A DNA stretch of 59,837 nucleotides, counting the filler. It is 2 parts of 2 records of this genome, joined end to end, with 100 filler letters (N's around TTAATTAATTAA, not from the genome) between each part and the next. Parts side by side here need not be neighbours in the genome. Positions count along the whole stretch, not along the records: positions 1 to 31,933 come from SRR20825019_328; 1 more part is not named here. One strand, given 5' to 3'. A model generated the notes under the pieces. The model was not told the DNA's origin. It did no database searches and was given only the letters and a program-made list of their open reading frames with translations. This document shows, piece after piece, positions 3,314-43,417 of the stretch. The position numbers were made by a program, and so were the translations under genes. Within the stretch, counting starts at the first letter, position 1, and the number at the start of each line of letters is the position of its first letter.

Positions 3314-3831
3314 CTAGAGACGATATCCAATTCTTGCTGCAGTGGAGGACCTGGGAGTCAAGGCGTCTGAAGAGAAGGATATGAAAAAACACTCTCAGGC
3401 AAAAAAAGACTACCTACTGGAATGATGTCCCGTTGGATCCTTCTTGGTTGAGGAGAAAGGTGAGGCCCCAGAAGACGACTTTTCTTCCTTCTAAAAGGAT
3501 AAACGAAAATTATGAGTTCAAAAGTAAACATATAGAAGAAATAACTAAAAGATATTCAGCATGTCGCGAGCGCCGTAAACCTAGACCCGACTACAATAAC
3601 GGGATAGCTGAATTACACTCGCATTTTGTATCGCCACGGAAATATCCAAGTACACCACATGAATGGATCTCATTGATGTACGCGTATAGGCGAAAGATAA
3701 AGAGATAGAAAAAAGAGCTTCAAACGAAGGCTAACTGTTACCTGTTTGGATGCGGCCAACTTGCGGGCCTCTTCGTATTCCTCTAAGTCTTCCTCCTTCA
3801 ACTCTAGTCGTGTTGGCTTACGACGAAGCAT
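3314..3831 (-). CDS. CDC26: Anaphase-promoting complex subunit CDC26/APC12, about 71 aa (exons 3831-3742, 3490-3418, 3366-3314)
   Basis: N-terminus [20 protein letters not shown] matches the CDC26 signature (human [20 protein letters not shown]). The spliced C-terminus ARIGYRL resembles human DRIGYKP. Confidence 0.9.
3559..3693 (-). ncRNA. Candidate intronic box H/ACA snoRNA (about 135 nt) in CDC26 intron 1
   Basis: Hairpin 1 (TCGCC/GGCGA base, GTACATCA/TGGTGTAC upper stem), H box ATACAA (3631-3626), hairpin 2 (GCGAGTG/CGCTCGC base, CCCG/CGGG upper stem), ACA (3564-3562). Lies in the only 251-nt intron, and both pockets are complementary to conserved rRNA segments. Confidence 0.75.
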
Positions 3832-3889
3832 ACTTGTTGCACATGGATTATGAAAGCAATTTTTTCTCCCTATTACAAGAATAGGTTGG

Positions 3890-4500
3890 AAAGCGCGCGG
3901 CCCGGGGCGTGACCAGCATGAACGGACCGGCGACCGGACGGCGCCGGTCACGGTAGGTGCTCTCGGACCGGGGAGCCGGGCACCGCGGCGGGCGGCTGCC
4001 AGGGTCCGCGCCAGCACATTCGAAATCGGGCGACGTCAAATGATGACTCCAAGATGATATGCGTAACTTCCAGACAAATCATAAAATCGATTGTGTAGGC
4101 ATTGAATACTATCAACGAATCCCGATCCCGCAGACGAGGGCAAGCAGGTCAGTCGGCCCACACGGTCCGGAGTCCAGTCATCAGCCAAGCGCATGAGTGG
4201 CACCGACTTGGCCCCGACCGCCCCACTGCCGGTCACTTCCGCCGGGATGGGGGCGCTGCGTGGTGCCGTGGCCGGCCGGCAGCCGTGTCAAGCAACCATC
4301 CACCATCTCCGGAAAACTGGGCTCTGTGCATCCGGTCAACTCGCAAGCTGACATGGTTTGTGATGTTTGCTTAGGGACTTGACCTTGACAACAGTGAGCC
4401 AGGATGCCGACCGCACGCGCTGGCTGGAGGGGTGTGGGCTTGGGGGGCTGGTGGACGGAGGGTTGCCCGAGTTTGCCGGCCCCAAAACCGCTCAACGACA
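3890..4500. promoter_or_regulatory. GC-rich island(s) in the divergent CDC26 / phosphatase promoter region
   Basis: GC-rich blocks at about 3890-4035 and 4130-4500, separated by an AT-richer spacer, between divergent starts. Confidence 0.55.
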
Positions 4501-4626
4501 CCACAGGAGCAAGCAGTGTCATTGTTATTCTTGAGAGATGTCAACGAGACAAGTCCAATGCCTCTAAGCAAGGACTGCAATAAGTTTAAGTGTGGTGTTA
4601 GGATAGTTTGATTGTAGCGAGTTAGC

Positions 4627-7003
4627 ATGAGGGTTGCCGCCTGGACTGGCTTCTGCGTGTGTATAGCCATCGCATGGACGGGCGCCACGGCCATGTTTGA
4701 GGCTCAGCCCATCGCGCGTAGGGTACAATGGAGCCCTTGCGAAATGAAGGGCTGCCTTTGGGGCGGTACGGGAATAAGCTGTGGCAGAAAAATTCCTTCC
4801 CATCACAAGAAAATGTTTCAGGATAATCTTGAAAATTACTTCAACCTTGCCGAGCTAAGTGCGGGTGATAATTTTCACAAGTCGTGCTTATGCACGATGC
4901 CCCGTATGTTCGGGTTGGGTGGAACGAGTGGCGCTAAATATAACGTAGAGACAGTGGCCCCAGTGTACTCGTTCGATAATATGCCGGCGCCCAGTGTTTA
5001 CTGTTTGGCAGCTACTAAGTTGGGTGATGCTCCCAAAGTGTGTCGTGATCCCTTTATTGAAGATGGCAAGGACAAGAAGTTCTGTCAATGCTTTGAAGTT
5101 GACCATGACAACGAGACAGACCGGCCATTTACTCGGTTACAAACTGAAATGGTCAACGACTACCTAGATCTGGGGTGTACTCACTTTGTTGGACACCAAG
5201 TTGCTGCTGAACCGAAGCATGAGATTGATGAAGTGTTAGATGTTACGGGGAAGGATGTAAGGGTTGCCATTTTGGGTGACCTCCACGGAGACTATGAGCG
5301 GACTGTGATGGCTCTGCAAATGGGAGGACTTCTTGACAAAGATGAACAGTGGAATGAAAACGAAAAGGAAACTATTCTCATTCAAACTGGGGATATCTTT
5401 GATAGAGGTGTGGATGACATGAAGTTGTTTTTGTTTTTCAATCACCTTCAGGCTGGCGGTGCGAAGATTGTAAGATTGAATGGCAACCATGAATACAATC
5501 TTCTTTCAGGAAACTGGAACTACAAAAATTTGTGGAGATGCAAGAACACGCCACCAGATTCGAGGAAACGTGCGAATTGCATCGGTGCAATTTCTCTTTC
5601 TAGCTGTAATGGAATGGCATTCAAGCAACTGATCAAGCAACCGTTTGTGAAACTTGTGAGATATGGCAAGGACAATGATTTTAAGTACATTGTTGTGGCC
5701 CATGGAGGAATTCCTCCTAAGCTGGCAGATTTTACGTTCTTTGCTGGTGTCTCGTCGATGAGATCAAAGCAGGATCGACCTGCAGTCATGGCAACTTTGA
5801 TGAATAAGTACTTCCGGGATTTATTGTTGGAGCAATGTGAAATCAATGCAGAGTACATTCGTGACTTCAACCCAAGGGTTAGCACTGATCAATTCGACAT
5901 TTCCGTGCTAAAAGGGAGGGGTAGAGTTGACATCCTTCCATCAGGGGAAAATCGGCACAAAGTGACTGACGTAAGCGAAAGTCCATTCACTTTCCGTGGT
6001 TATTTTGCGAATCAAGCAATACCTACTGAGGTGATAGATGAGGATAGACCTGGGTGCAATGAAGTCTTGAAAGCATGGACCGCATTGGGTATGATTGGTA
6101 ATACTGTGGATGAATCGATAACTTACAATGTGACTGTAGGGCTGGACGATAGTGACCTAATGGTAGTTGGACACACGGTCCTTGAGTATGGACGAGGGCA
6201 AACGTTGAGCTGCAGAGGCCGACTCCTCAGTGTGGACACTGGGTTGTCTAGGTGGATGGCCCTCCCAGCTGAGTTGGGAGGTGACAGGCTTATGCAGTAT
6301 CACAATCGCCCAGCCATTGCGTTTGTTCACCCTAGCGGTGAAATCGAGAAGAGAGTGGCATATTTTTTCAACGGGTTGGAGGAAGCTTTGGAATCATCCG
6401 TGCGAGCGAACAAGTATCAGACAATCGCGAGCAAGTTTTACTATCCAACGAATACATATGAGCCTTCCGCGGACACCGAGATTTGCTTCTATCTATCCAG
6501 TAAGTTTCTTTCTTGATTGGACTTTATTCGTACTGACTTTAAGATCAGACCGTGACGGCGGTGAGGAAGCTAATCCGCATTATTGGGCTTTCCAGGAATG
6601 TAAGGAGGCCCTCGATTCCGAAATGATGGTGGTTGGTACTGTTGAAGGAAAGGAGGCGTGGCTTAGTGAGCCCCTGTCAAAGGCATTGGAGAGTGATGAT
6701 GAACTTAGAAGGTCCGATGAACGCAAGGACAGGCTGGTATCCGATATTTTGGCAAGCATGGAGGATAAAGAAAGAAAGGGTACAGAAAAAGTGGATACTG
6801 ATAAGGACAGGATGGAGTTGATATCGGATGTTTTGAGCGACATTGACCAAGAGAATGCCAAGAAAGACAAGCTGGTAAGGGAACTTTTTGGTGACGACGA
6901 AGAAGGAAGCGACAAACGGGGAGTCGATGAAGGAGGAGTCGACGATGGAGAAGACGATAGAGGAAATGGTGCAAAGGAAGAAACAATGCTATCCGGCCAT
7001 TGA
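4627..7003 (+). CDS. Secreted Shewanella-like (Shelph/SLP) PPP metallophosphatase with Cys-rich N-terminal region and acidic C-terminal tail (exons 4627-6499, 6549-7003)
   Basis: Hydrophobic N-terminus (MRVAAWTGFCVCIAIAWTGATA). Motifs GDLHG, GDIFDRG, GNHE, HGG, GHT and the Shelph-type VDTG. A 49-nt intron (6500-6548, branch TACTGAC) joins the acidic ORF in frame. Confidence 0.85.
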
Positions 7004-7379
7004 TTCAAGATGGCGTTCCACGGAGAGATGCGAACTTTCTTATCACGACTGCTAGAATTGAAGATTATGGTCGCTTCGGGAGTATGGATGCCTTGGGAGA
7101 AGGTCAATGGTGCACCTTCTAGTCTTTCACGACAGTGTGGCTATTGAGAGCTTGGATGGTCGTGGGTAGCTTAGATGATCCTAGGCTGCTTTGGCCCGGC
7201 TGCCGGTAATCATCGTGAATGGCGACGAGCCCTGCGAACTTACTTAAAGCGGAATCTGCATTTCCATGAACTTTGAAACCAATCACTGGCTTGACCTTGA
7301 CTAATTATGATAATTATTTTTAGAAACTATTGCTAGAGTAGTTAGCCGTTCACTGCTACTAGCTAGTCACTGATGAGAG

Positions 7380-7650
7380 TTCACGCCCGGCCCTACGGCC
7401 CTTCGGCGACCGGACGACACTTGATGGATCACCGTGCGCCGGGAGACCGCCGGCACGTGTCGACCGGCCCACCCCCCGTGGCACGTGCCCGCCGCGCGCG
7501 GGGCGGGGCCAGCGCGCGGCGGGGCCCGCGGCGCACCTCGGTGGCCTGAGTGACCCCGGCGCCATTGACCTGCCCGGGGCCGGGACCCCCCCGGTTGGGC
7601 CGGCGCGGCGTACGGCTGGACCGGCGTCATCCGTCGGGTCGCACCAGGGT
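7380..7650. promoter_or_regulatory. GC-rich island upstream of the 7718 gene
   Basis: GC-rich block ending about 70 nt before ATG 7718. Confidence 0.55.
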
Positions 7651-7717
7651 CGTTTGGTGTACTCTAGTGTATATATGCGAGTCAAGACTCTTTTCAAACT
7701 ATTTTAACAGACTTAAA

Positions 7718-13487: not shown

Positions 13488-13599
13488 CAGCGAGCCACTG
13501 CCTGCATTATAACATTACGTATATTCCGATACATCAACAGCAAAAGAATTGCGCAGTATGAAATCACCAAGCGGCGGGTTGTCTGCACTGTACGACCTC

Positions 13600-14100
13600 A
13601 TGGACGAGGCCCGGCTACCGCTCGCCCAGCCCACTCGCGTAGAGCCTCTCGGTGACCAGAACCACAAATGACGATCTGGCCCGTTCAGTGCCGATGCCGG
13701 GACGGTGCGCCCGCGTCATTGGCTTGCCGCGCCGGGCCGGGGGGGCCGCCGGCCGGGCGCCGGGCAGCGTCCGTGGAGTGGCGCCAGTCGTGTCGCCGCC
13801 GGCGCCGGCGCGCCAGCACTGATCAGTCCGCCGGTACCGGCGAACTGGGCGTAGGATGTACGTTCGATTGACATGAATCAATGGGTCATCTGAAAGTTTT
13901 TTGGAGATGACAGTCCGGTCATCACCGCCCCCTCACCCGACCCACAGGACGCGGGGCCGACTGATGACCACCCTCAGAAGGGTGAGGGGCGGACGAGGCC
14001 CCCTCATCACTCTCATCTGACAGGGTCGGTTTTAGCATCGATCAGCCTGGGCCACCCGGCGGGCCAATTGCCGCTGCTGTCAACACGAACTTTCCGGCGT
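13600..14100. promoter_or_regulatory. GC-rich island in the divergent kinase / EF-hand gene promoter region
   Basis: GC-rich blocks between divergent ATGs 13487 and 14246. Confidence 0.55.
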
Positions 14101-14245: not shown

Positions 14246-15460
14246 ATGGCTGACACCCCTAGACGCAAACTCTCTTCCAGTATGTCAAGCAGACCACCAG
14301 TTGATCCTTCAACAATCAATGAGTTTGGAGACCTGAGCGACAAGCTCAACTGTATGTGTGTTTCATGGAAACGCCATGCTGGTATCTTACTATGACTTGC
14401 AGACAAGCAGCAGGCAGTCTGGTTCATGAATGGATTCTGGCCTGAGATCTACAAGTTGAACCACATGGAACTGATATATACTTATGTTGCTAAGTTCGTC
14501 GAACTCGATCTCCTTCAGCTTCCTCCTGCGGGAGTTGATGGTCATGACTTGGACGCTCTACAGAGCGCCAAGTTTATTGAACAAATGGATGAGGTGAGCT
14601 TTCTACAATAGTGGCTATCATGTCATTAAGTTCATGTTCTGTGCTCAGGATGCAATGACTGCGACTGAGAGGAAGGAAGCTCTCCGCACAATTGATCTTA
14701 ACCACAATAACCGTATGGCCTGCATTGGTATGTGTGCTTTCTGTATCTGTAGATTTAGACTGTTACCGACTAGAGTTTAGAGTACTTGACTTGGAAGTAC
14801 AAGAAGTCTGTGGAGCAGGTTGTGAAGGCTCCCCAGGGTGACAACACCGAACTGTTGGAGAAGGCACAGGCCAAGATGGATGCTGTGGCTAAGGCCATTG
14901 AGGAACTTACCCCAAAGCTTGAGGCTGCCCAGAATGCCGCGGCAGAGGCCAAAGCTGCCGAGAATGCAGTCAAGAAAGCTGAGGCCGATCTCCAGCAAGC
15001 GGTTGAGGACTTAAACGCTCAGGAAACCGCCTTCAACAACAAGATCTCTGAGCTGGAGAAGCTTGCCGGCGATATGTCCCTTGGTGTTGTGAAGCGTGGC
15101 CGCGCTGCTAACGAGATGGAGCAGCTTAAGAGCGAGGATCCCCTCCCGCTGCGCACTGCAAAAATCACCCAAGAGGCGGCCCTTCGCAGAGTCACTAAGG
15201 AACGTAAGGCTGCTGAGGAGGCTACTGCCGTTGCTGAGAAGGCACAGAAGGAGTTGGAGGATGCGTACGCCGATCTGGAAGTCAAGATGAAGGAAACCCA
15301 GGCGGAGCTTGAGGAGGTGAAGAAGGGCGGTGGACCTGCTCATGGTGCGATGTGGTGGATGGAAAGAGAGCTTTATGAGGCCGACAGGTCTCTCCCGAAG
15401 GCAAAGCAGCGCTACGACCATACCAAGCCCTTGGAATATGCCTGGGAACCTACTCAGTAA
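14246..15460 (+). CDS. EF-hand plus coiled-coil protein of the protist 'TolA-like' family (exons 14246-14351, 14403-14593, 14649-14727, 14781-15460)
   Basis: Spliced protein has WFMNGFW, an EF-hand-like loop IDLNHNNRMACIEYL, PQGDN, an Ala/Glu/Lys coiled coil, EDPLPLRTAKIT and AMWWMERELYEA. I recall these motifs from amoebozoan proteins annotated 'TolA-like'. Confidence 0.7.
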
Positions 15461-22153: not shown

Positions 22154-22329
22154 TTCCGCGCTGAGTAGGACTGAAGCTACTATCACCAGACTTGACTATA
22201 CACCTTAAACACTTAGTCGGAAGCCCAGTTATGTAGCACACTCAGCCTTAAAGCTGTGCTCATGGTGTGATGGCGAATGCACATCACTCAAGCTACCAAA
22301 CCCAAAAGATTGTCGCGAGTATCACTGCA

Positions 22330-23060
22330 CCGGCGGACACTCACCGTGTCAGGCGGTGAGTGCTCCCCAATGGACGGGCGACGGTGTTCACGCCGTGATA
22401 CCTCCTTCGCGCCGGCGCCGGAGCGATGGCTCGGTCGCCGGCGCTGTGGCATTGACCGGGGCAGCCAGCCCGCCGTGAACGGTCGTCCCTCCCCGCGCCC
22501 GGCCGGTGTCTTGAGTGGGAGGAGAGCATTCAGGGCTCCATCAGTGCCGGCGGCCGCCCGGCAGGCCCGCGGGATGGCCGTGTTGACTTAAGTTGACAGC
22601 AATCTCGCGTAATCTCAAATAGGACGGGAGTATCGCGGGTTTCTAATTTCCGAGTTCGGCCACGAGCCGGCGGCCGGGCTTCGTGGCCAGTAGGCCGGCG
22701 AGGCGGGGCGGCCCGCGGCGGCCGGGGCACGGACCCGGGCCGGCCCCGCGGGCCGGCGGCGGCGGGCCGGCGCGGCTCCACTACGCCCACGGCGGGCCTC
22801 AGAGCGGGTCCCGCAGGGGCACCGGCCGGGCCGGGGCCGAGGCCGCCGCTCGCGGGCCGCCCGCGGCCCGGCCGCGGCGCCCGCCGCGTGGAGCGGTCGG
22901 AGGCCGAGTTGGGACCCGTCCAGGCACCTCACTGATGGCTACGGGTGGCGAGCGGCGTGGTCTGGACCGGACGTCTGGCCGGTCTTGGGGCCACCGCGGC
23001 CTCCGCCCGCGAGGCCGCGGCGCTCGAGGGACCGCGCGTTCAGTTCGCCAGTCCTGTTCG
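22330..23060. promoter_or_regulatory. GC-rich island in the divergent MORN / calcineurin B promoter region
   Basis: Very GC-rich blocks with a short AT-richer centre near 22585-22650. Confidence 0.6.
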
Positions 23061-23156
23061 GGCCGCATCTTTGCCAGCTCACCACAAATAACGCACCCGT
23101 GCGAGTAGAAGGATTTGACTAGAGAAACCTACACCTACCCGCAAAGTCACAGCACC

Positions 23157-25390: not shown

Positions 25391-25469
25391 ACTTTTCTGT
25401 GTGAGCAGTGTTTCGGATGTGTAGTGATGTCCGGTGACTTACCTTTATGGGAAGAAAATGGAAGAGGAG

Positions 25470-26540
25470 TCACCGGACTGCCAGGGCGGCTGGGTTCGGC
25501 AGGCCCCTGTAAGTGTGACCCACAGTGAACGACCGCACGACAGTCGTGTCCGGCGGAAAATCACTCACTGACGACAACCCCGGCCCTGCCGTAGCGGGGG
25601 GACGTGACGGCCCGGCGGCCGGCGGCCCAGTGTCCCTGAGGGGTTTCCGCCGAGCCCGGCGGCCGCCGCGGGAGTCTGCCGTCTGACTCACCACTCGCCC
25701 CGCCGGCCCGGCCGGGGGCCCAGGTCGGCGCAGGCCAGCATCTGTCGCGGGCCCCTGTCGCGGGCCCCTATGCCGGCCGCCTGAGCCCGCGCCGGCCGGC
25801 GGCCCCCAGGCGAGTCGCCGCTCACTGCCGGCTGGCCGGCCGCCGCCGGCCTGCGCGGCCGGCTTGGGGGGGAGTGACTCTGATGAGCGGCCACTGACCG
25901 GCACCCCATGCCGGAGGCTGGCCGTGTCCGGCGGGCTGCGCGGACGGGAACCGCTGGTTGGCGCCCGGGCGCCGGCCAACTCGGAAGGCGGCCTTTGGGG
26001 ACCACCCGGAGCGGGCGTCCCCGGCGGATTTCAAACCTGACTGCCTTGCTGACCAAACGTTTGGCCCCCAAGCCTGAACCGGGGACCGATGGAAGCGCCT
26101 TGGCACCCCGGCCCGGCGTTTGATTTGTTCTCCGTTGTCTCGTTGTTGGACATGTGTAAATCAGGCCGAGGAGGCCTCTCATGACCAAACGCCCTCACCG
26201 AAAGCCCGCGTGTGTGCCGAGGGCCGCAGTGGCAGCCGTCGGATGCGGCCTATCTATCCAATGCACGCCCGGTCAACTCATCATCCCGGAGCGACCCCCG
26301 CCGCCCGGCGAGCGGCAGCGGAGCCCGCGGCCGGGGGCGGCACACCAGGTCCCATCGTCTCAGTCTGAACGTCCTCGGCCGCCGGCGGAGCCTCGCGGCG
26401 CTCTAGTCAGTCACCGGTGTCCCCAAGCGAGCGCTAAACCGGGACCGCTGTGGGTCGCTCGGTCCCCCTTCCGCCGCATACTGCGGCCCTGCCGTGGGCT
26501 GTCACCACGTGTCGGCCCTGAGACCTTGGTGCGGCGACCA
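25470..26540. promoter_or_regulatory. Longest GC-rich island, in the divergent hypothetical / SK channel promoter region
   Basis: About 1 kb of GGCC/CCGG-rich sequence between divergent ATGs. Confidence 0.6.
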
Positions 26541-26624
26541 CCGGCTAACCCACTATTAACACATACTATTTAAGACTGTTTAGGCGGACAGTCCAAGCAG
26601 AGTGGCTGAGCGGCTTCGTGGAAG

Positions 26625-30859: not shown

Positions 30860-30959
30860 TGTCGGGTGTTATTTCATCGTTTGATGACCTTGTCATATCT
30901 AACTATAACAGCAGTGAAAGGCACAATGCCGGTCAACTCGAAGAAATTGATAACTAGAC

Positions 30960-31300
30960 CAACGGAGCCTGGAAAAGGCTGCGGCGAAACAAAGGACGAA
31001 CCGCCGTGACGGTGTTGCCGGGACACGGTTCATTGGCCGGTATCACCCTAGCGGGCCCGGCTGACGCATCCGAATCACTGAAGGATCCCTTGCCACCGGA
31101 TCCCTCCAGAAAGGTCGGCCGTGCCGACCCGGGGGCCGGGTGCCGACCCAGCCCGGCGGCCCGTAACTTCCAAGTTCCGCGAGGCCCATCACGACTCCGC
31201 CGGCTCAAAGTGTCAAGAGTCGCAGGCGGGTGACGACACGGGCCCGACCGGACCTCCGGGCTGATCAAGCTCGGGTCGACCCAGTCTACAACCCGAACTC
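30960..31300. promoter_or_regulatory. GC-rich island upstream of the ALDH gene
   Basis: GC-rich block just 5' of ATG 30859. Confidence 0.5.
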
Positions 31301-31314
31301 ACTCTAATAGTAGA

Positions 31315-31933
31315 CTAAAATACCCCAAATGGGAAGATTGTCATGGGACTTATAATTAGAAGCTCATCCGGCATTCCAAGATGTCGTATGATTGTTAAGG
31401 CATATTTAGTTGCTGCAAAACTCGTAGTGGGGAATATCAGGTTCCGGTGGTTCAGGAGGACGCTGGTGAGGAATTCGGCGCTGGTGGTGTCGTTCTGGTT
31501 TTTATTCTTGCGTCCTTCTGTGTTGTTGGACTGCATGGATTGCTCCACGAGCTCGGCGTAGCGCTCATACGCCACGCGAGCCTGGGATTCGTTGTTTTCG
31601 GGCCTCTGCGGCGGGATCGAGCATCCCGGAGGGAAGGTCGCCATCAAAACAAGCCGGCTCAAACTGGGGATGTGGTTTCTTCATGATTCCCGTTGTCGTT
31701 GTCATCATCCCCGCCCGCGCCCATTCCTTTTCTGGCTCGGTCAAGAAAGGACTTGGCAGTGGCGCCGTCGATCTTGGCGAAATTTCCGTACGTATACCGA
31801 GCTGGGGGTGGTGGGACTGCGCATACCGCAGCGCGGACTCGAGTACTCACTGCACCTCGTGCTCTGTCAACCAGCACCGATGTCACTATGGCCCCCCTAT
31901 GGTCACGGGGTGGGCTTCCAGTGGCACAGCTCT
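31315..31933 (-). CDS. Possible 5'-truncated hypothetical gene at the contig end
   Basis: Two minus-strand ORFs (31659-31886, 31315-31662) can be joined by a possible 59-nt GTTTGA..CGCAG intron. No recognisable family. Confidence 0.3.
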
Positions 31934-32033
31934 NNNNNNNNNNNNNNNNNNNNNNNNNNNNNNNNNNNNNNNNNNNNTTAATTAATTAANNNNNNNNNNN
32001 NNNNNNNNNNNNNNNNNNNNNNNNNNNNNNNNN
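31934..32033. other. Artificial contig-concatenation linker (44 N + TTAATTAATTAA + 44 N)
   Basis: Symmetric N runs flank a 12-mer with stops in all six frames. Genome style changes abruptly across it. Confidence 0.98.
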
Positions 32034-33303
32034 GCCGGGAGGCTGTTTTGCAGATACTTATCACTGGAAGGACGGTGTTGGTCCACAAGAAGATCGGCCT
32101 ACCATTGTAAACCGTTGGTGGGGCGGGACCACAGAGGATAACAGCTTTGGGACCCATAACTTTTTAAATCTTTGTGAAGTGCTTGAAGCAGAGCCCTATC
32201 TCTCAGCCAACGTGGGCAGTGGAACCGTGCAGGAGCTTATCGACTGGGTACAGTATACCAATCATGACGGAATTAGTCCAATGGCCGACTGGCGACGTGA
32301 AAATGGAAGGGAAGAACCCTGGAAAGTCAAATATTGGGGTGTGGGCAACGAAACATGGGGTTGTGGCGGAAATATGACCGCGGAGTATTACGCGGACATT
32401 TACCGTCAATATGCCACTTTTATGCCCGGTTGGTCCGGAGAGACCGAAGTGTACAGGATTGCATCAGGAGCGTCTGAAGACGATTATCATTGGACGGAAA
32501 CCTTAATGAAAAATGTACCTCACGAATTGATGGAGGCCGTTGCGCTGCACGATTATGCTGTGTTTGATTGGTCCGATAAAGGTCCATCGGTCAATTTTGA
32601 TGAAGAGATCTATTTTAAAACGATGGAACAGGCACTGAACATGGAAGAATATGTGACCAAGCATATCGAAATAATGGATAAGTACGATCCTGATGGTAAG
32701 GTAGACCTTTTTGTCGACGAATGGGGAGGGTGGTACGATGCCGAACCAGAAGTAGCAAACGGGGTACTTTTTCAACAGAATACCATCCGTGATGTGATGA
32801 TTGCAGGTACGGTGCTCAATACATTTAATAATCATGCCCGAAGGGTCAAAATGGCCAACTTGGCACAAATGGTCAATGTGCTACAGGCAGTGATACTCAC
32901 CGATGAAGAGAAAATGATCAAAACGCCTACATACCATGTCATGCACATGTACAAAGTGCACCATGATGCAAAACTGTTGCCATCCAAAGTTGAAGATAAT
33001 ATAGAGTATAGAGGACTTCCGGTGGTATCCGTATCTGCGTCAAAGGATGAAGCAGGGAAAGTTCATATTTCTTTGGTCAACATTGACCCGGAAAAGGATG
33101 TTGAGGTAGAGGTGGACATTTCCACATTGGAAATTAAAAAGATTGAAGGAAATATTTTGACATCGGAAAAGCTTCAAGATCATAACTCCTTCGACAACCC
33201 AGAAAAGGTGACACCGAAGGAATTTAAGGATGTCAAATTGAAAAAAGGGAAAATCTCCCTCACCATCCCCGCACACTCACTTATAGTCTTACAGGGAAGT
33301 TAA
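32034..33303 (+). CDS. Alpha-L-arabinofuranosidase GH51, 5'-truncated
   Basis: PGGCFAD, FGTHNF, WGVGNETWGCGG (acid/base Glu), VDEWGGW (nucleophile), MANLAQMVNVLQA. The frame is open from the contig start. Confidence 0.95.
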
Positions 33304-33309
33304 GAGAAC

Positions 33310-35286
33310 ATGAAAAAAAATTTATTTACGTTGGCAGGTCTTTTTTTGTTGACCATATCCTGCCAGGAAGAATCCAAAAATCAGGCAGGTGATCAAAGTA
33401 TGGCCGGTAAGTCACCGGACTATCCCATTGAGTCCGTGAACATACAGAATGTAAAGCTTAATGATGAGTTTTGGTTGCCGATCATACAACGTGTTCAGGA
33501 AAAAACCATTGAATATGCGTTGGCCAAATGCCAGCAAGAAGGTCGTTTTGACAATTTTTTGATTGCAGGGGGAGAAATGGAAGGCGAGGTAAAAGGTGCC
33601 ATGCCGTTTGATGATACCGATGTTTACAAAATAATTGAGGGAGCTTCCAACTCACTCATCAGTGCTCCCAATCCCAAATTGGAAAAATTGGTCGATTCGT
33701 TGGTTTCCATTATCAAGATAGGGCAGGAAGCGGATGGTTATTTGACCACATGGCGAACCATTGACCCTGCCAAACCTCCTGCCAACTGGGTAAATGTTGA
33801 CAAAGGGGAACGTTGGGAATCCTTGGCAGCGAGCCACGAGCTGTATAACGCAGGACATTTGTACGAAGCGGCAGCCGTACACTACGAAGCAACCGGGAAG
33901 CGAAATTTTTTGGACATTGCCATCAAAAATGCTGATTTAATGGTAAAGACCTTTGGCGATGGAGAAGGAAAGATCGCTGCTGTCCCCGGACACCAGATCA
34001 TAGAAACGGGGCTCATCAAACTGTATCAGATTACAGGAAAAGAGGATTATCTAAAACTTTCCAAATACTTTTTGGATAACAGGGGAAATCCTGATAACCA
34101 CGACCTTTTTGGAGCTTATTCGCAAGATCACTTGCCCGTTGTGGCACAGGACGAAGTGGTAGGGCATGCCGTAAGAGCGGTTTATATGTACGCTGCCATG
34201 ACGGATATTGCCGCTATTCAAAAAGATACCGCCTACTTGGATGCAGTAAATACGCTTTGGGAGAACATGGTCAACAAAAAAATGTACATCACGGGAGGCA
34301 TTGGTGCCAAACATGATGGCGAGGCATTTGGTGAAAATTATGAGCTGCCCAACCTAACGGCCTACAACGAAACATGTGCATCTATCGGTGATGTCTACTG
34401 GAACCATAGGTTGCACAACCTCACGGGGGATGTAAAATATTTTGATGTTATTGAAAGAACATTGTACAACGGGTTGATTTCCGGACTGTCCCTGGATGGT
34501 CAACAGTTCTTTTATCCCAACGCTCTGGAATCCGACGGTGTTTACAAATTCAACCAAGGAGCATGCACCCGAAAGGATTGGTTCGACTGCTCTTGCTGTC
34601 CTACCAATGTAATCCGTTTTATTCCCGCCATGCCAGGGCTTATCTATTCCAAAACGGGCAATACCCTGTATACGAACTTATATGCGAGCAATGAGGCAAA
34701 GGTGGAATTGCAGAATCAAGACATAATAGTCACTCAAGACACATCGTACCCATGGGACGGGAAAGTTAAATTCACTGTAGAACCAGAGATGGAAGGAGAA
34801 TTTACCGTAAAGTTCAGGATACCTGGCTGGTCCAGGAATGCCGTTTTGCCTGGAGATTTGTATCAATATGTTTCCAAAGATGAAGCAAGCAATAAGCTTA
34901 GCTTAAATGAGGAGGAGATCGATGTGGTTGCTGATAATGGCTATTTCACGCTGACCAGAACATGGAAATCTGGGGATCAGGTGGAATTGGAGTTCCCAAT
35001 GTCCGTAAGAAAAGTGAAGGCCAATCCAGAAGTCGAAGAAGACCTGGGGAAAATGTCCCTTGAGTACGGTCCTATCGTTTATGCGGTAGAGGAAATTGAT
35101 AATAAAAGCACTTTTGATAATATCCGGCTCACTGCCAATGAAGAATTCAAGGTGGAGATGCAGCCCGAATTATTGGGAGGTGTCAAAACCATATCAAATG
35201 AGAAGTTAACCGCCATACCCTATTACGCATGGTCCAATCGTGGTATTGGTAAAATGAAGGTGTGGTTACCTACAGAGGAAAATTAA
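33310..35286 (+). CDS. Beta-L-arabinofuranosidase GH127 (HypBA1-like) lipoprotein
   Basis: Lipobox TISC. Motifs HELYNAGH, GHAVRA, GEAFG, YNETCA, CSCCP (Zn/Cys active site), AIPYYAWSNRG. Confidence 0.93.
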   Translation: MKKNLFTLAGLFLLTISCQEESKNQAGDQSMAGKSPDYPIESVNIQNVKLNDEFWLPIIQRVQEKTIEYALAKCQQEGRFDNFLIAGGEMEGEVKGAMPFDDTDVYKIIEGASNSLISAPNPKLEKLVDSLVSIIKIGQEADGYLTTWRTIDPAKPPANWVNVDKGERWESLAASHELYNAGHLYEAAAVHYEATGKRNFLDIAIKNADLMVKTFGDGEGKIAAVPGHQIIETGLIKLYQITGKEDYLKLSKYFLDNRGNPDNHDLFGAYSQDHLPVVAQDEVVGHAVRAVYMYAAMTDIAAIQKDTAYLDAVNTLWENMVNKKMYITGGIGAKHDGEAFGENYELPNLTAYNETCASIGDVYWNHRLHNLTGDVKYFDVIERTLYNGLISGLSLDGQQFFYPNALESDGVYKFNQGACTRKDWFDCSCCPTNVIRFIPAMPGLIYSKTGNTLYTNLYASNEAKVELQNQDIIVTQDTSYPWDGKVKFTVEPEMEGEFTVKFRIPGWSRNAVLPGDLYQYVSKDEASNKLSLNEEEIDVVADNGYFTLTRTWKSGDQVELEFPMSVRKVKANPEVEEDLGKMSLEYGPIVYAVEEIDNKSTFDNIRLTANEEFKVEMQPELLGGVKTISNEKLTAIPYYAWSNRGIGKMKVWLPTEEN

Positions 35287-35310
35287 TGCATTGAAGATAG
35301 AAAAGAACCA

Positions 35311-36987
35311 ATGAAGAAATATGTAATAGGACTCGATTATGGTTCCGACTCGGTAAGAGCGGTAATGATCGATTCCCAAAACGGAGCGGAACTGGCCTCC
35401 GAAGTATTCTGGTATCCTAGATGGAAAGCACAAAAATACTGTGACCCCGCCATCAACCAGTTTCGACAACACCCCTTAGATCATATAGAGGGATTGGAGC
35501 ATACCATAGCCTCCGTGATGAAGCAAAGCGAGGTGTCCCCAGAAACCGTAAAAGGAATCTGTATCGATACCACAGGTTCCTCGCCAATGCCAGTGACCCA
35601 AGACGGCACTCCATTGGCCTGCAAGGATGGTTTTGAGGAAAATCCGAACGCCATGATGGTGCTTTGGAAAGACCACACCGCTGTAAAAGAAGCAAACGAA
35701 ATCAACGAACTGGCCAGAAGCTGGGGCGGAGAAGATTACACCAAATATGAAGGTGGCATTTATTCTTCCGAGTGGTTCTGGGCCAAAATTCTTCATGTGG
35801 CCAGAGAAGATAAAAGCGTAGTTGATGCTACCCATACATGGATGGAACACTGTGACTTTATCACTTATCTTTTGGCGGATGAAAAAGATTTAAAGGCATT
35901 TAAAAGAAGTAGATGCGCAGCAGGACACAAAGCCATGTGGCACGAAAGCTGGGGCGGACTTCCCGATTCAGCTTTTTTATCAAAACTGGATCCGTACTTG
36001 GCATCACTTCGTGATAATCTGTATCAAGATACATTTACATCGAACGAAGTTGCGGGCCATCTGAACAAAGAGTGGGCGGACAAATTAGGTCTTACTACCG
36101 ATACCGTAATCGCTGTGGGTACTTTTGATGCCCATGCAGGTGCCGTTGGCGCCAAAGTAGACCACCACGCACTGGTCCGAGTCATGGGAACCTCCACTTG
36201 TGACATCATGGTCTCATCCAACCAAGCAGTGGGCGACAAAACGGTTAAAGGCATATGTGGACAGGTCGATGGTTCCGTAATCCCTGGCATGGTCGGTCTA
36301 GAAGCAGGTCAATCCGCTTTTGGTGATGTATTGGCATGGTTCAAGGACGTATTGCAATGGCCAATAGATAACTTGGTTTTAAACTCCGAGGTGTTGTCGG
36401 AGGAACAAAAAGCCGAGCTCAAAGATGAAATAGAATCAAAATTTATTCGGTCTTTGGCGGAACAGGCGGAGGCAATTGCTTTGTCCGAAGTCGTCCCGGT
36501 CGCATTGGACTGGGTAAATGGCAGGAGAACTCCCGACGCCAATCAAGAATTGAAAAGTGCCATTTCTGGAATATCGCTGGGTACGAAGGCCCCCCATATT
36601 TTTAAATCCTTGGTCAATGCCATTTGCTTTGGCGCCAAAATGATCGTGGATCGTTTTGAGGACGAAGGTGTCAAAATCGAGACCGTCATCGGTATCGGTG
36701 GCGTGGCCAGAAAATCACCTTTCATTATGCAGACTTTGGCGAATGTATTGAACATGCCCATTAAAGTTGCAGAATCGGATCAAGCTCCGGCTTTGGGTGC
36801 GGCGATATACGCAGCAGTGGCCGCAGGGATTTATGGAAATGTAATTGAGGCCAGTAAGGTAATGGGAAGTGACTTTGAAGCAGAATATTTTCCGCAAGCG
36901 TCCCAAGTGGAGGTATATGCCCAGTTGTTGGAAGCGTATAAACAGCTTGGAAACTTTGTGGAAGAACAAACGAACAAAAACACATAA
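35311..36987 (+). CDS. araB: L-ribulokinase
   Basis: IGLDYGSDSVRA, LWKDHTA, YSSEWFWAK, CAAGHKAMW, GLEAGQSAFGD, DWVNGRRTP. Confidence 0.96.
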   Translation: MKKYVIGLDYGSDSVRAVMIDSQNGAELASEVFWYPRWKAQKYCDPAINQFRQHPLDHIEGLEHTIASVMKQSEVSPETVKGICIDTTGSSPMPVTQDGTPLACKDGFEENPNAMMVLWKDHTAVKEANEINELARSWGGEDYTKYEGGIYSSEWFWAKILHVAREDKSVVDATHTWMEHCDFITYLLADEKDLKAFKRSRCAAGHKAMWHESWGGLPDSAFLSKLDPYLASLRDNLYQDTFTSNEVAGHLNKEWADKLGLTTDTVIAVGTFDAHAGAVGAKVDHHALVRVMGTSTCDIMVSSNQAVGDKTVKGICGQVDGSVIPGMVGLEAGQSAFGDVLAWFKDVLQWPIDNLVLNSEVLSEEQKAELKDEIESKFIRSLAEQAEAIALSEVVPVALDWVNGRRTPDANQELKSAISGISLGTKAPHIFKSLVNAICFGAKMIVDRFEDEGVKIETVIGIGGVARKSPFIMQTLANVLNMPIKVAESDQAPALGAAIYAAVAAGIYGNVIEASKVMGSDFEAEYFPQASQVEVYAQLLEAYKQLGNFVEEQTNKNT

Positions 36988-36988
36988 G

Positions 36989-37690
36989 ATGAGCTCTACA
37001 TACAAATCGCTTAAAGAAGAATGTTACGAAGCGAACATGGAACTCAATGCCTTGGGTTTGGTCATATATACCTTTGGTAATGTGAGTGCTGTGGACAGGG
37101 AAAACGCTGTTTTCGCGATAAAACCAAGTGGTGTGCCCTATGAGACCTTGAAGCCTGAGGATATCGTCATCATGGATTACGATAACAATGTGGTCGAGGG
37201 CAGTTTAAGACCGTCATCCGATACCAAAACACATAGCTATCTCTATAAAAATTGGGAGAATATCGGTGGAGTAGCGCATACGCATGCCATGTATTCCGTT
37301 TCGTGGGCACAGGCACAAAGGGACATCCCGATTTTCGGCACCACACATGCCGATCATCTTACGCAAGATATTCCCTGTGCACCGCCAATGGCCGACGAAC
37401 TGATCGAAGGAAACTATGAGCACAACACGGGAATCCAGATTTTGGATTGTTTCAAGGATAGAAATTTGGACTATAACGAGGTCGAGATGGTACTGATTGG
37501 AAACCATGGGCCGTTTGCTTGGGGCAAAAATGCGGCCAAAGCCGTTTACAATACCAAAGTGTTGGAAACGGTTGCCCAAATGGCGTATTTGACTTTGCAG
37601 ATAAATCCGCAAGCTCCAAGATTAAAAGATTCATTAATAAAAAAACATTACGAGCGTAAACACGGTAAAAATGCCTACTACGGTCAATAA
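36989..37690 (+). CDS. araD: L-ribulose-5-phosphate 4-epimerase
   Basis: TFGNVS, IKPSGV, PSSDTKTH, HTH, GTTHADH, NHGPF, KHGKNAYYGQ. ATG at 36989. Confidence 0.96.
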   Translation: MSSTYKSLKEECYEANMELNALGLVIYTFGNVSAVDRENAVFAIKPSGVPYETLKPEDIVIMDYDNNVVEGSLRPSSDTKTHSYLYKNWENIGGVAHTHAMYSVSWAQAQRDIPIFGTTHADHLTQDIPCAPPMADELIEGNYEHNTGIQILDCFKDRNLDYNEVEMVLIGNHGPFAWGKNAAKAVYNTKVLETVAQMAYLTLQINPQAPRLKDSLIKKHYERKHGKNAYYGQ

Positions 37691-37704
37691 ATAAATCAAA
37701 ATAA

Positions 37705-39210
37705 ATGAAAATAGCTAAAAAGGAAATCTGGTTTGTAACAGGAAGTCAACATTTGTACGGGCCGGAGACCTTAAAACAAGTCGCGAGCAATTCAAAAAAT
37801 ATTGTTGATGGATTGAATGCAGCTGGAAAATTGCCCGTCACCTTGGTTTTTAAACCCATTGTAACCACACCGCAAGAAATTACCGCTCTCTGTCGTGAAG
37901 CAAGTAACTCCACCTCTTGTATAGGGGTCGTTACCTGGATGCATACTTTTTCCCCAGCTAAAATGTGGATTGCAGGACTCAAGATATTGAGCAAGCCTTT
38001 GTGCCACCTGCACACCCAATTCAATGCAGAGATTCCTTGGGACAGCATTGATATGGATTTTATGAATCTGAATCAATCCGCACATGGTGACCGAGAGTTT
38101 GGATTTATGATGTCCAGAATGCGCAAGAATCGCAAAGTGGTTGTAGGTCATTGGAAAGATGAGCGAGTTCAAAAAAAATTGGCCATTTGGTCGCGAGTTG
38201 CTTTGGGAGTTGATGAATTACAACATATGAAAGTGGCCAGAATTGGCGACAATATGCGAGAAGTCGCTGTTACCGAAGGCGATAAAGTCGCAGCTCAATT
38301 ACGTTTTGGTGTAGCTGTGAACGGTTATGATTCATCCGATATTACCAATATTATCAATGGATTGGAACAAAAAGCCGTTGATCAACTGATCGAGGAATAC
38401 GAAGCCAGCTATAATCTGTCAGAATCGCTTCAAAAGAATGGAGCACAAAGACAGTCTTTGATAGATTCAGCCAGAATAGAATTGGGACTTAGAACCTTCT
38501 TGGACGATGGTGGCTTTAAGGCATTCACGGATACTTTCGAGAATCTTGGAACCCTTAAACAGTTGCCAGGTCTCGCAGTACAGCGTTTGATGGCCGACGG
38601 ATATGGCTTTGGTGGCGAAGGTGATTGGAAAACCGCCGCCTTGACCCGTACCATGAAAGTAATGGCCGAAGGGTTGGAAGGTGGCACTTCCTTTATGGAA
38701 GATTATACCTACCACTTTACACCTCAAAAAGATTATGTTTTGGGCTCGCACATGTTGGAGATTTGTCCTTCCATTGCAAGTGCAAAACCCTCTTGTGAAG
38801 TGCATCCGTTGGGTATTGGTGGCAAGGAAGACCCTGTTAGGTTGGTCTTCGACTCTCCCGCAGGTGATGCATTGAATGCTTCATTGATAGATATGGGCAA
38901 CAGGTTCCGTTTGATCGTGAACGAAGTGGAAGCAGTAGCTCCCATGGCCGATTTGCCAAAATTACCAGTGGCACGGGTACTTTGGGACCCTAAGCCCAAC
39001 TTGGATATTGCCGCAACCGCTTGGATTCATGCGGGAGGAGCGCACCATACGGTATATACCCAAGCGTTGACCACTGAATATATGGAAGATTTTGCCGATA
39101 TTTTCGGAATAGAACTTTTAGTCATAGATTCGGACACGAAACTTAGAGCATTTAAAGATCAACTCCACGCCAATGAAGCATACTATCATTTGTTTCAGCA
39201 TGGAATGTAA
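37705..39210 (+). CDS. araA: L-arabinose isomerase
   Basis: [51 protein letters not shown]. Confidence 0.97.
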
Positions 39211-39230
39211 TCAACTAACTTAAAATTATA

Positions 39231-40418
39231 ATGATGAGGATAACCAAACCTTCTATATTTTACGGGGTTTTACTTTTGGTCTTTACAATTATCAGCTGTA
39301 AGGAAAACAAAAAAGAAAGCCAGTCAGAAATGGAAACTGCAAAAACTGAAAGTACACAAAACCCCATTGAGGAGACCATCTTTGGAGAAATGCCAGATGG
39401 CACAAAAGTGAAAAAATTCACGCTGAAAAATGAAGCGGGAACAGAAGTGGATGTCATTACCTACGGGGGTATCATCACCCGCTGGACAGCTCCAGATAGC
39501 AATGGGGCCTATGAGGACATTGTTTTAGGTTTTGATGATCTGGACCAATATCTTGATGGAAACCCGTTTTTTGGGGCACTTATTGGCCGGTATGGAAACC
39601 GTATAGCCAACGGGAAGTTTTCTTTGGACGGAGAAACCTATACGCTGGCCACAAACGATGGCGATAACCATTTGCATGGAGGAGAGAAAGGATTCGATAA
39701 AGTGGTATGGGATGGAGTTGCCAAAACTACTGAGGAAGGCGCTACCGTTGAGCTTACCTACACCAGTGAAGATGGAGAGGAAGGATACCCCGGAAAATTG
39801 GATGTAAAGGTCACCTATACGCTTACGGATGACAATGCATTGGATATTCAGTATGAAGCTGTGACGGACAAACCAACAGTTGTCAACTTAACGCAGCACA
39901 GTTATTTTAATCTTTCAGGACAACTTTCCAAACCAGTTTTGGACCATAAGATTTATTTGAATGCCGATACCTACTTGCCCGTTGATGGAGGTTTGATTCC
40001 GACTGGAGAATTAAGGAAAGTAGCGGGAACGCCTTTCGATTTCAAGGAGCCGAAACTAATAGGTAAGGAGATAGAGGCCGAAAACGAGCAATTGGGACTT
40101 GGTGGCGGTTATGATCATTGTTGGGTGCTTAATGAGGGTAAGGACAACTTTCGTTTGGCCGCCTCGGCATATCACGAAAAAACGGGACGTTTTATGGAAG
40201 TATACACCAACGAGCCCGCGATTCAGTTTTATAGCGGAAACTTTTTGGATGGAACCTTGCCTGCAAAAGCAGGGGGTACCTATGTCAAGCGTTCAGGCTT
40301 CTGTTTGGAAACCCAACACTATCCAGATAGTCCCAACCAGTCAGATTTTCCATCGGTTAGGCTGAATCCTGGTGAAAAATATACTTCGAGGACCATGTAT
40401 AAATTATCAACCAAATAA
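39231..40418 (+). CDS. galM: Aldose 1-epimerase (mutarotase) lipoprotein
   Basis: Lipobox IISC. Motifs GRYGNRIANG, NHLHGG, NLTQHSYFNL, GYDHC, CLETQHYPDSPN. Confidence 0.93.
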   Translation: MMRITKPSIFYGVLLLVFTIISCKENKKESQSEMETAKTESTQNPIEETIFGEMPDGTKVKKFTLKNEAGTEVDVITYGGIITRWTAPDSNGAYEDIVLGFDDLDQYLDGNPFFGALIGRYGNRIANGKFSLDGETYTLATNDGDNHLHGGEKGFDKVVWDGVAKTTEEGATVELTYTSEDGEEGYPGKLDVKVTYTLTDDNALDIQYEAVTDKPTVVNLTQHSYFNLSGQLSKPVLDHKIYLNADTYLPVDGGLIPTGELRKVAGTPFDFKEPKLIGKEIEAENEQLGLGGGYDHCWVLNEGKDNFRLAASAYHEKTGRFMEVYTNEPAIQFYSGNFLDGTLPAKAGGTYVKRSGFCLETQHYPDSPNQSDFPSVRLNPGEKYTSRTMYKLSTK

Positions 40419-40428
40419 AATAACTGCC

Positions 40429-42048
40429 ATGCAGACATTGGATACGTTTGATTGGGTAGCCATATCCATATACTTTTTGATTCTTCTGGGAATTGCACTA
40501 TGGGTAATCCGTAAAAAGGAGAACAATACCGAAGACTATTTTTTGGCTGGTAGGAATGTAGGATGGTTCGTTGTAGGAGCGTCTATTTTTGCCTCAAATA
40601 TAGGGTCGGAACACGTTGTGGGATTGGCAGGAGCTGGTGCCGGGGACCGTTTGCCCATGTTGATTTACGAAATACAAGCTTGGGTAGTTTTGATTCTGGG
40701 ATGGGTATTCCTGCCCTTTTATGCAAGAGCTGGAGTTTTCACCATGCCCGAGTTCCTGGAAAAACGTTTTGACGCTAGGGCGAGGTGGATACTGTCCGTA
40801 TTCTCCATCGTGGCCTACGTGCTCACCAAAATTTCCGTGACCATTTATGCAGGCGGAATTGTGGTTTCCGCACTCTTGGGCATCGATTTTTGGACAGGTG
40901 CCATTGCAACAGTCGTACTGACTGGAATCTACACAGTGCTGGGAGGTATGAGGGCGGTTGTTTATACCGAGACCCTGCAAGCCGTTATTTTGGTGATCGG
41001 GGCCGCTGCACTTACCTTTATTGGTCTTGATCATGTCGGAGGATGGGAAAGTATGAAGGAAACCGTAACCCCAGAATATTTGAATATGTGGAGAGCAGCC
41101 TCGGATCCCGATTTTCCATGGCCGCCACTTTTGATTGCCAGTACCATTACGGGTATCTGGTATTGGTGTACCGATCAATATATCGTGCAACGTGCATTGA
41201 CGGCAAAGAACATAAAAGAGGGTAGGAGAGGAACCATTTTCGGAGCCCTGTTAAAACTGTTACCCGTATTCTTGTTTTTGATTCCGGGTGTTATCGCCTT
41301 AACACTTAAAATGCGTGGAGAATTACAATGGGACAGTCCTGATCAAGCTTTTCCTGTATTGATGAGCAACTTATTGCCATCGGGGCTTCGAGGACTGGTG
41401 GCTGCAGGTCTGTTGGCCGCTTTGATGAGTTCTTTGGCTTCGGTTTTTAATTCTTGCTCCACCTTGTTTACGGTTGATATTTATAAGAAATTAAGACCCA
41501 ATGCACCGGAAAAGAAATTGGTGCGGACCGGTCAGATTGCCACAGTGATTGTGGTAATCATCGGTATTATTTGGATTCCCATCATGGCCAATATCTCAGG
41601 AGTGCTTTATGAGTACCTGCAAAGTGTACAGTCCTATATAGCACCTCCGATTACAGCTGTGTTCCTATTGGGTATTTTTCATAAGCGAATCAATGCGCAA
41701 GGGGCGTTCGTGACCATGGTGGTCGGATTTATTGTGGGAGCCGTCCGAATTGTACTGGAATTGGTAAAAGATTCATTGAATCCCGATAGTTTCTGGTTCT
41801 TGTTGGGCGATATGAACTTCCTATCGTTTGCATCATGGTTCTTCTTATTCTGTATTATCCTGATTTTGGTCGTGAGCTACGCTACCGCGCCACCATCAGA
41901 AGAGAAACTGAAAAACCTGACCTATGCCACGATTTCCGAAGAGGAAAGAAAGGACAATAAAAATAGCTACAATTGGAAGGATATCGTCATTTCCACCATC
42001 ATCATAGCCATTGTGGTGTATGTAATGATTTGGTTCAACGGAAAATAA
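40429..42048 (+). CDS. Sodium:solute symporter (SGLT-like sugar transporter)
   Basis: YFLAGR, ASNIGSEH, TMPEFLEKRF, WYWCTDQYIVQR, AALMSSLAS. ATG at 40429. Confidence 0.94.
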   Translation: MQTLDTFDWVAISIYFLILLGIALWVIRKKENNTEDYFLAGRNVGWFVVGASIFASNIGSEHVVGLAGAGAGDRLPMLIYEIQAWVVLILGWVFLPFYARAGVFTMPEFLEKRFDARARWILSVFSIVAYVLTKISVTIYAGGIVVSALLGIDFWTGAIATVVLTGIYTVLGGMRAVVYTETLQAVILVIGAAALTFIGLDHVGGWESMKETVTPEYLNMWRAASDPDFPWPPLLIASTITGIWYWCTDQYIVQRALTAKNIKEGRRGTIFGALLKLLPVFLFLIPGVIALTLKMRGELQWDSPDQAFPVLMSNLLPSGLRGLVAAGLLAALMSSLASVFNSCSTLFTVDIYKKLRPNAPEKKLVRTGQIATVIVVIIGIIWIPIMANISGVLYEYLQSVQSYIAPPITAVFLLGIFHKRINAQGAFVTMVVGFIVGAVRIVLELVKDSLNPDSFWFLLGDMNFLSFASWFFLFCIILILVVSYATAPPSEEKLKNLTYATISEEERKDNKNSYNWKDIVISTIIIAIVVYVMIWFNGK

Positions 42049-42079
42049 AAACTTGATATTGGTTGGATTCTTGAATAAT

Positions 42080-42108
42080 AAATGGGCGCTTTTAAAGTGC
42101 CCATTTTT
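42080..42108. terminator. Intrinsic terminator between the convergent symporter and TolC genes
   Basis: AAATGGGCGCTT-TTA-AAGTGCCCATTT stem-loop followed by a T run. Confidence 0.8.
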
Positions 42109-43414: not shown

Positions 43415-43417
43415 AAG

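Follow-up and report, generated by a model that had tools for sequence, protein, structure and literature searches.

Does intron 1 of a CDC26 gene from a poorly sampled eukaryote encode a box H/ACA guide RNA, and if so, which rRNA uridines would it serve? The question arises from a window of 59,837 nucleotides (the whole stretch of DNA that was analysed, filler included), for which the initial annotation had proposed an intronic dual guide at 3559-3693 with one target in 18S and one in 5.8S rRNA. The explanation that fits our results best is an H/ACA RNA of ~135 nt, encoded on the host strand, that would guide rRNA pseudouridylation, and we place the probability of this whole reading at roughly 0.7. 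Judged from its fold and sequence elements, the RNA itself is very probably a genuine box H/ACA snoRNA encoded by CDC26 intron 1. In H/ACA RNAs, 14-16 nt separate the target U from the H or ACA box downstream of it. Because the 5' pocket breaks this rule, the predicted function as a dual guide is only half secure.

The host contig and the CDC26 gene

The window consists of two contigs that were joined artificially, with runs of N at 31934-31977 and 31990-32033 around a 12-nt linker that has stops in all frames. The first contig (1-31933) is eukaryotic. From 32034 onward the genes are of Bacteroidota type (GH127, AcrB, SusC-type), and over the stretch compared (32034-46000) the sequence matches contig C2 of the 4.4-Mb prokaryotic genome G001 with 100% identity; G001 is the nearest genome in the collection and matches the bacterial contig only. 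The ORF at 14774-15460 (+) of the eukaryotic contig belongs to the ABP34 F-actin bundling family (Pfam PF18060), and among named sequences it comes nearest to a Physarum transcript (56% identity) and Stygamoeba transcripts (44-46%). These relatives suggest that the host organism is amoebozoan-like, without a close relative in the protein collection, and we therefore treat it as an undersampled amoebozoan and not as a fungus.

The host gene lies on the minus strand. Exon 1 occupies 3742-3844, with the CDC26 start codon at 3831, and is followed by intron 1 (3491-3741, 251 nt, GT..AG), exon 2 (3490-3418), intron 2 (3417-3367, 51 nt, GT..AG) and the coding part of exon 3 (3366-3314). Translated, exon 1 (3742-3831) matches Pfam PF10471 (ANAPC_CDC26) with 42.2 bits where the cut-off is 24.5 (E 1.5e-10), which bears out the host gene named in the initial annotation, and the spliced frame gives a protein of 71 residues that ends at 3314. 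The borders of the introns come from a single 298-nt spliced cDNA contig, assembled from one public sequencing run that is unlabelled as to kind and contains a quarter of the sampled words. Exactly the stretch 3491-3741 is absent from this contig, so that the intron itself lies outside it, and the 251-nt intron proposed earlier is thereby confirmed to the base; intron 2 is spliced out as well, and the earlier statement that there is a single long intron holds as far as these two introns go. The spliced contig means that the host gene is transcribed and spliced. None of the papers in the literature library that we searched combined CDC26, a snoRNA and an intron.

The cDNA contig stops at 3844 with loose adaptor-like letters. 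It starts exactly at an ATG, which opens an upstream frame of eight codons (3844-3818, minus strand) that runs out of frame over the CDC26 start at 3831 and may be a regulatory uORF. Upstream of the gene, the island 3860-4529 lies between divergent genes, namely CDC26 (cDNA start 3844) and an ORF that starts at 4627. It is one of the GC-rich islands (61-73% GC, 350-1100 bp) in the eukaryotic contig, which otherwise has 44-48% GC; the islands are at 963-1821, 3860-4529, 7343-7692, 13546-14091, 22296-23116, 25449-26571 and 30956-31317. Such GC richness in intergenic or promoter regions is unusual, and BLAST at E 1e-8 found no sequence similarity of the islands to each other. The divergent ORF (4627-6516, +) encodes 629 aa and contains a calcineurin-like phosphoesterase domain. 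A search of 5.8 billion protein clusters gave only six weak relatives (best E 1.5e-7), which suggests either restriction to this lineage or rapid evolution.

Fold and boxes of the predicted intronic RNA

Within intron 1, the predicted box H/ACA snoRNA occupies 3559-3693 on the minus strand and consists of a hairpin, a hinge, a second hairpin and a tail. Its ends are predicted from the sequence, as the one spliced cDNA contig skips the intron. The locus was found again by a scan of our own, and reading the minus-strand sequence showed that the coordinates given earlier for all elements are correct.

The 5' hairpin starts with a lower stem of 5 bp, in which UCGCC (3693-3689) pairs with 3635-3631 in the minimum-energy folds. 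Then follow the 5' guide strand UAUACGC (3682-3688), the upper stem-loop (3650-3681, 13 bp with one bulge and a 5-nt loop) and the 3' guide strand UUGGA (3645-3649). The folded upper stem-loop contains G-U pairs and is hence strand specific. The 3' strand of this pocket also contains nine surplus unpaired bases (3636-3644), part of which makes a 3-bp mini-hairpin with the guide bases GGA in the minimum-energy fold. The H box AUACAA (consensus ANANNA) is read in the hinge at 3626-3631. It adjoins the 5' hairpin so closely that its first A can still take part in the lower stem as the final paired base, and ACAAAA at 3629-3624 is an alternative fit to the consensus.

In the folded 3' hairpin, GCGAG (3618-3622) forms the 5' strand of the lower stem with 3570-3566. 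The 5' guide strand of its pocket is UGUAAUUCA (3609-3617), with GTAATTCA located at 3616-3609 on the minus strand. It is followed by the upper stem-loop (3581-3607, -5.3 kcal/mol alone in our own scan) and the 3' guide strand UUACG (3574-3578). The ACA box (3562-3564) stands one base after the 3' hairpin, and the predicted 3' end is 3 nt further on, at 3559. Between the first paired guide base and the box, the spacing is 14 nt in the 3' pocket (ACA) and 18 nt in the 5' pocket (H box).

RNAfold gives two hairpins for 3693-3559 (minus strand) in both the minimum-energy and the centroid structure, which agrees with the hairpin-H box-hairpin-ACA order on the host strand described in the initial annotation. 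The whole RNA folds with -42.6 kcal/mol, and 11 of 200 shuffled sequences fold equally well; its z-score of -1.73 is modest. Folded singly, the hairpins have z-scores of -2.57 (hairpin 1) and -1.86 (hairpin 2). The antisense strand folds worse (-32.9 kcal/mol, z -0.91, against z -1.73 for the sense strand), which is the difference expected if G-U pairs matter on the host strand.

Complementarity of the two pockets to rRNA

Both pocket pairings were read on rRNA genes of other eukaryotes; as the host looks amoebozoan, these are proxies and not its own rRNAs. The proxies are eukaryotic rDNA contigs that contaminate prokaryotic assemblies, and their genes were delimited by Rfam and BLAST. Many assemblies filed as bacteria or archaea carry such short eukaryotic rDNA contigs (plant-, fungus- or protist-like) as contamination, and the contaminant loci used here include L043, L070, L104, L125, L156, L158 and L222.

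The best match of the 3' pocket is the 5.8S segment CGUAA-UG-UGAAUUGCA, with 14 bp (9+5, one G-U) on L104 and L043, where we thus recovered the 5.8S pairing proposed earlier at 14 nt from the ACA box and with a single G-U. The nine pairs, including the G-U, are formed by the 5' guide strand, which pairs with UGAAUUGCA in L043, L104, L125 and L222, and the other five by UUACG with the CGUAA of fungal-type 5.8S. On L125 the pocket makes 9+4 pairs, and on L222, whose 5.8S reads UGUAG, 9+5 pairs of which three are G-U. The 5' half of the 5.8S segment is more variable, with CUUGG in plants and CGCAA in one protist. The 5.8S site ranks first on every rDNA unit that has a fungal-type 5.8S, and none of the rDNA units scanned contained an LSU site that outscored 5.8S for this pocket. 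The summed duplex energy is -10.1 kcal/mol. A register of the 3' pocket on the U equivalent to human Psi69 was rejected by hand, the 3' strand being unable to pair. From this complementarity, the U in CGUAA-U-G-UGAAUUGCA of 5.8S rRNA is probably the target of the 3' pocket.

For the 5' pocket the best structurally compatible match is always the 18S segment UCCAA-UA-GCGUAUA, with 12 Watson-Crick bp (7 between UAUACGC and GCGUAUA, 5 between UUGGA and UCCAA) that leave no guide base unpaired at the top of the pocket. The perfect pairing that the initial annotation had derived for UAUACGC (3688-3682) and UUGGA (3649-3645) thus holds on the proxy rDNAs, as does the spacing of 18 nt to the H box, beyond the usual range. 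The site has the top score on five of the six SSUs that bear the motif (L104, L125, L156, L151, L222, L196); on L104 it ties with a G-U-rich 7+3 match (3 G-U) in the ITS/5' LSU part. Its summed duplex energy is -10.7 kcal/mol, and among 50 eukaryotic SSU matches, 37 have the motif after the primer site. The 18S of L158 departs from the motif and reads GCUUUGU. The LSU of the same locus gave the sole higher score for the 5' hairpin (11+4 bp, 3 G-U), which we rejected because lower-stem bases would be needed as guide, so that the stem is melted, and because this protist LSU is divergent. Across four rDNA units of other eukaryotes, neither pocket had a structurally compatible target better than the 5.8S and 18S sites.

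The 18-nt spacing exists because the nine surplus bases 3644-3636 part the guide from the lower stem, and our own scan of the proxy rDNAs found no target for the 5' pocket at the canonical 14-16 nt. We therefore propose the 18S U in UCCAA-U-A-GCGUAUA only tentatively as the target of the 5' pocket, since perfect pairing is combined with an off-rule spacing; on the pairing evidence the odds are a little short of even. The initial annotation recognised neither uridine as a standard yeast or human site. The predicted 18S U is not known to us as a pseudouridine site in human or yeast, and a literature search on the neighbouring human sites was unproductive.

The same observations could mean that the RNA is a genuine H/ACA RNA of which the 3' hairpin alone is a working guide, the 5' hairpin serving assembly and the 18S match being a relic or chaperone-like. 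The surplus bases that produce the 18-nt spacing, the missing target at 14-16 nt in our scan and the guide bases GGA tied up in the minimum-energy fold all speak for it, and some predicted sites may have roles in folding or processing instead of modification, as noted in the review PMC8351944. On the other side stand the 12 perfect Watson-Crick pairs that reach up to the upper stem and are rare by chance (4 of 3000 shuffles; 10 of 400 decoys, see below), and guide strands that are no longer used decay fast. We regard a single working guide as a serious contender, though it remains the less favoured possibility.

How often such complementarity arises by chance was assessed with shuffled and with real sequences. 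When only the pocket strands were shuffled, the observed score was reached in 61 of 1000 cases for the 5' pocket and 11 of 1000 for the 3' pocket. This is less impressive than expected since the score tolerates G-U pairs, and the weight of the argument is therefore placed on tests of the combined architecture. Against shuffled rRNA decoys the observed scores were reached in 10 of 400 (5' pocket) and 4 of 400 (3' pocket), and never by both together (0/400). Dinucleotide shuffles of the intron yielded a whole 3' hairpin with stems, ACA box and a target scoring as high as the observed one 3 times in 1500. With the 3' hairpin given, 4 of 3000 shuffles also had an H box in the hinge and a 5' hairpin with a target of at least 12, where spacings between 14 and 20 were all allowed. 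The product of the two rates (3/1500 x 4/3000) sets the chance that this intron would contain both hairpins, complete with boxes and targets, at the order of 1e-6 to 1e-5.

In real sequence, lax thresholds gave 2 double loci among 30 ACA-hairpin loci of the eukaryotic contig, one of which is the CDC26 intron locus, and 0 among 14 in the bacterial contig that served as control. The other double hit, at ~25400-25525 (+), in a GC island, was judged a false positive; its rRNA matches carry 3-4 G-U pairs. At the observed scores the CDC26 intron is the sole double locus in ~120 kb of real sequence, both strands counted. Single ACA hairpins of equal score, with more G-U pairs, occur at two other places in the eukaryotic contig and at two in the bacterial contig. 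The complementarity of the two pockets to the proxy rRNAs is thus jointly above chance, and this part of the proposed dual guide stands; at canonical spacing the scan found no target for the 5' pocket.

These controls bear on the possibility that the fold is due to chance and that the intron is long for another reason, without a stable small RNA. The whole-RNA z-score of only -1.73, the look-alikes of single hairpins in bacterial DNA and the cDNA contig of the lone run, which skips the intron, would all fit such an explanation, and so would the searches for relatives. At gathering thresholds, an Rfam search of the whole window gave no match, so that membership of a named Rfam family is not supported; at E up to 10, the region 3400-3850 yielded two chance miRNA matches only. 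Rfam misses are common for fast-evolving H/ACA RNAs. A pattern consisting of both 5' guide strands at similar spacing was also searched, and none of its 23 metagenome hits and 25 hits in the genome collection carries the 3' guide strand and ACA, so that these two scans gave no homologue. Against a chance fold stand the low joint probability of the complete architecture, the failure of any other locus in the ~120 kb to reach both scores and the strand specificity of the signal, and we consider it improbable.

A further possibility is a genuine RNA of the H/ACA class whose targets are snRNAs or mRNAs, or which is an orphan; the rRNA matches would then be fortuitous. The rRNA of the host may differ from the proxies, as some protist rDNAs do in the target segments. 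Yet on several rDNA units that are independent of each other, both pockets find their top compatible matches in conserved rRNA segments, and inspection of the two terminal loops by eye showed no UGAG (CAB-box) motif. Such other targets seem quite improbable to us.

Relation to known guides and meaning of the locus

The favoured reading, an intronic H/ACA guide for rRNA, implies the following sequence of events. Splicing of the CDC26 pre-mRNA would release the intron. In H/ACA RNPs, dyskerin/Cbf5, Nop10, Nhp2 and Gar1 bind the hairpins and boxes, and by analogy they would assemble on the same elements of this RNA (both hairpins, the H box and the ACA box), after which exonucleases would cut the intron back to the stable, protein-protected RNA. 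The 3' pocket would pair with 5.8S rRNA on both sides of the unpaired U-G, and the U at 14 nt from the ACA box would be presented for isomerisation to pseudouridine. The 5' pocket would pair with 18S rRNA around the U of UCCAA-U-A-GCGUAUA. With this U at 18 nt from the H box, the outcome may be inefficient modification or a mere holding of the rRNA, or the pocket may be a decaying guide.

The 5.8S region concerned is modified across species according to the available text of both PMC8351944 and PMC4605285. Human 5.8S carries Psi55 and Psi69 and contains the fragment 71-AAUUGmCA-78, and S. pombe has a single Psi76 in AA-Psi-UG (PMC4605285); in yeast Psi73 is guided by snR43, and Arabidopsis has Psi22 and Psi78 (PMC8351944), all as given in the portions of these papers that we used. 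For Entamoeba histolytica, ACA-Eh-5.8S80a/b were predicted as equivalents of human U69, the guide for 5.8S Psi69; the Entamoeba H/ACA set is computational, with some members checked by RT-PCR or northern blot (PMC3542256, in the text at hand). Human U69 and ACA-Eh-5.8S80a/b resemble the CDC26-intron RNA as two-hairpin guides on the same 5.8S segment, just 5' of AAUUGCA, and Entamoeba is an amoebozoan, as the CDC26 host seems to be. They differ in that the CDC26-intron target U sits two bases 5' of the U aligned with Psi69, where offsets are counted back from the published fragment 71-AAUUGmCA-78 and the RNAs are compared by target site and not by alignment.

The likeness to snR43 (yeast Psi73, with Psi76 in S. 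pombe and Psi78 in Arabidopsis) is that this 5.8S region is served by an H/ACA guide, and the CDC26-intron guide covers the AAUUG. However, counted in the same way on the excerpted sequences, the site of yeast and S. pombe falls on the first U of AAUUG, at a distance of six bases in the 3' direction from the CDC26-intron target, and in the predicted duplex this U is base-paired to the guide and not presented for modification. The predicted 5.8S U therefore belongs to a known hot spot of modification, yet it coincides with none of the reported sites cited here, which agrees, for human, S. pombe, yeast and Arabidopsis as covered by these texts, with the earlier view of a non-standard 5.8S site. 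Supplementary tables of PMC8351944, PMC3542256 and PMC5824354 (the last with predicted targets in fungi) may list one of the two predicted positions.

Intron-encoded H/ACA snoRNAs are typical of vertebrates (PMC3542256, in the passage cited). The CDC26 locus shares with them the arrangement of a single snoRNA in an intron, encoded in the same direction as a spliced protein-coding host gene, and differs in its host, the APC/C subunit CDC26, and in its organism, an amoebozoan-like protist from a group with few described H/ACA RNAs.

That both pockets are active, giving two pseudouridines unreported in the model-organism data that we consulted, seems to us unlikely on present evidence. If it were so, the 5.8S site would lie in the hot spot, two bases from the position of human Psi69, and the 18S site would lie in a conserved segment just 3' of the helix-18 GGUAAUUCC stretch and would show, with its 18 nt, that the 14-16 nt ruler of H/ACA RNPs has a naturally occurring exception. 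Otherwise the finding is a routine annotation of a non-coding gene of the kind that protein-centred pipelines miss: it is a probable member of a well-known snoRNA class in a poorly sampled lineage, worth annotating and not surprising. Catalogues of H/ACA guides are poor for eukaryotes other than animals, fungi and plants, and for Amoebozoa the sections consulted of the papers cited here offer one cloned H/ACA snoRNA from Dictyostelium (PMC8817022) and the Entamoeba predictions. For this lineage the CDC26 intron locus provides a concrete candidate guide that can be tested, and both of its predicted targets lie in conserved rRNA segments; its 5' pocket offers a natural test of how strictly the spacing between box and target is kept.
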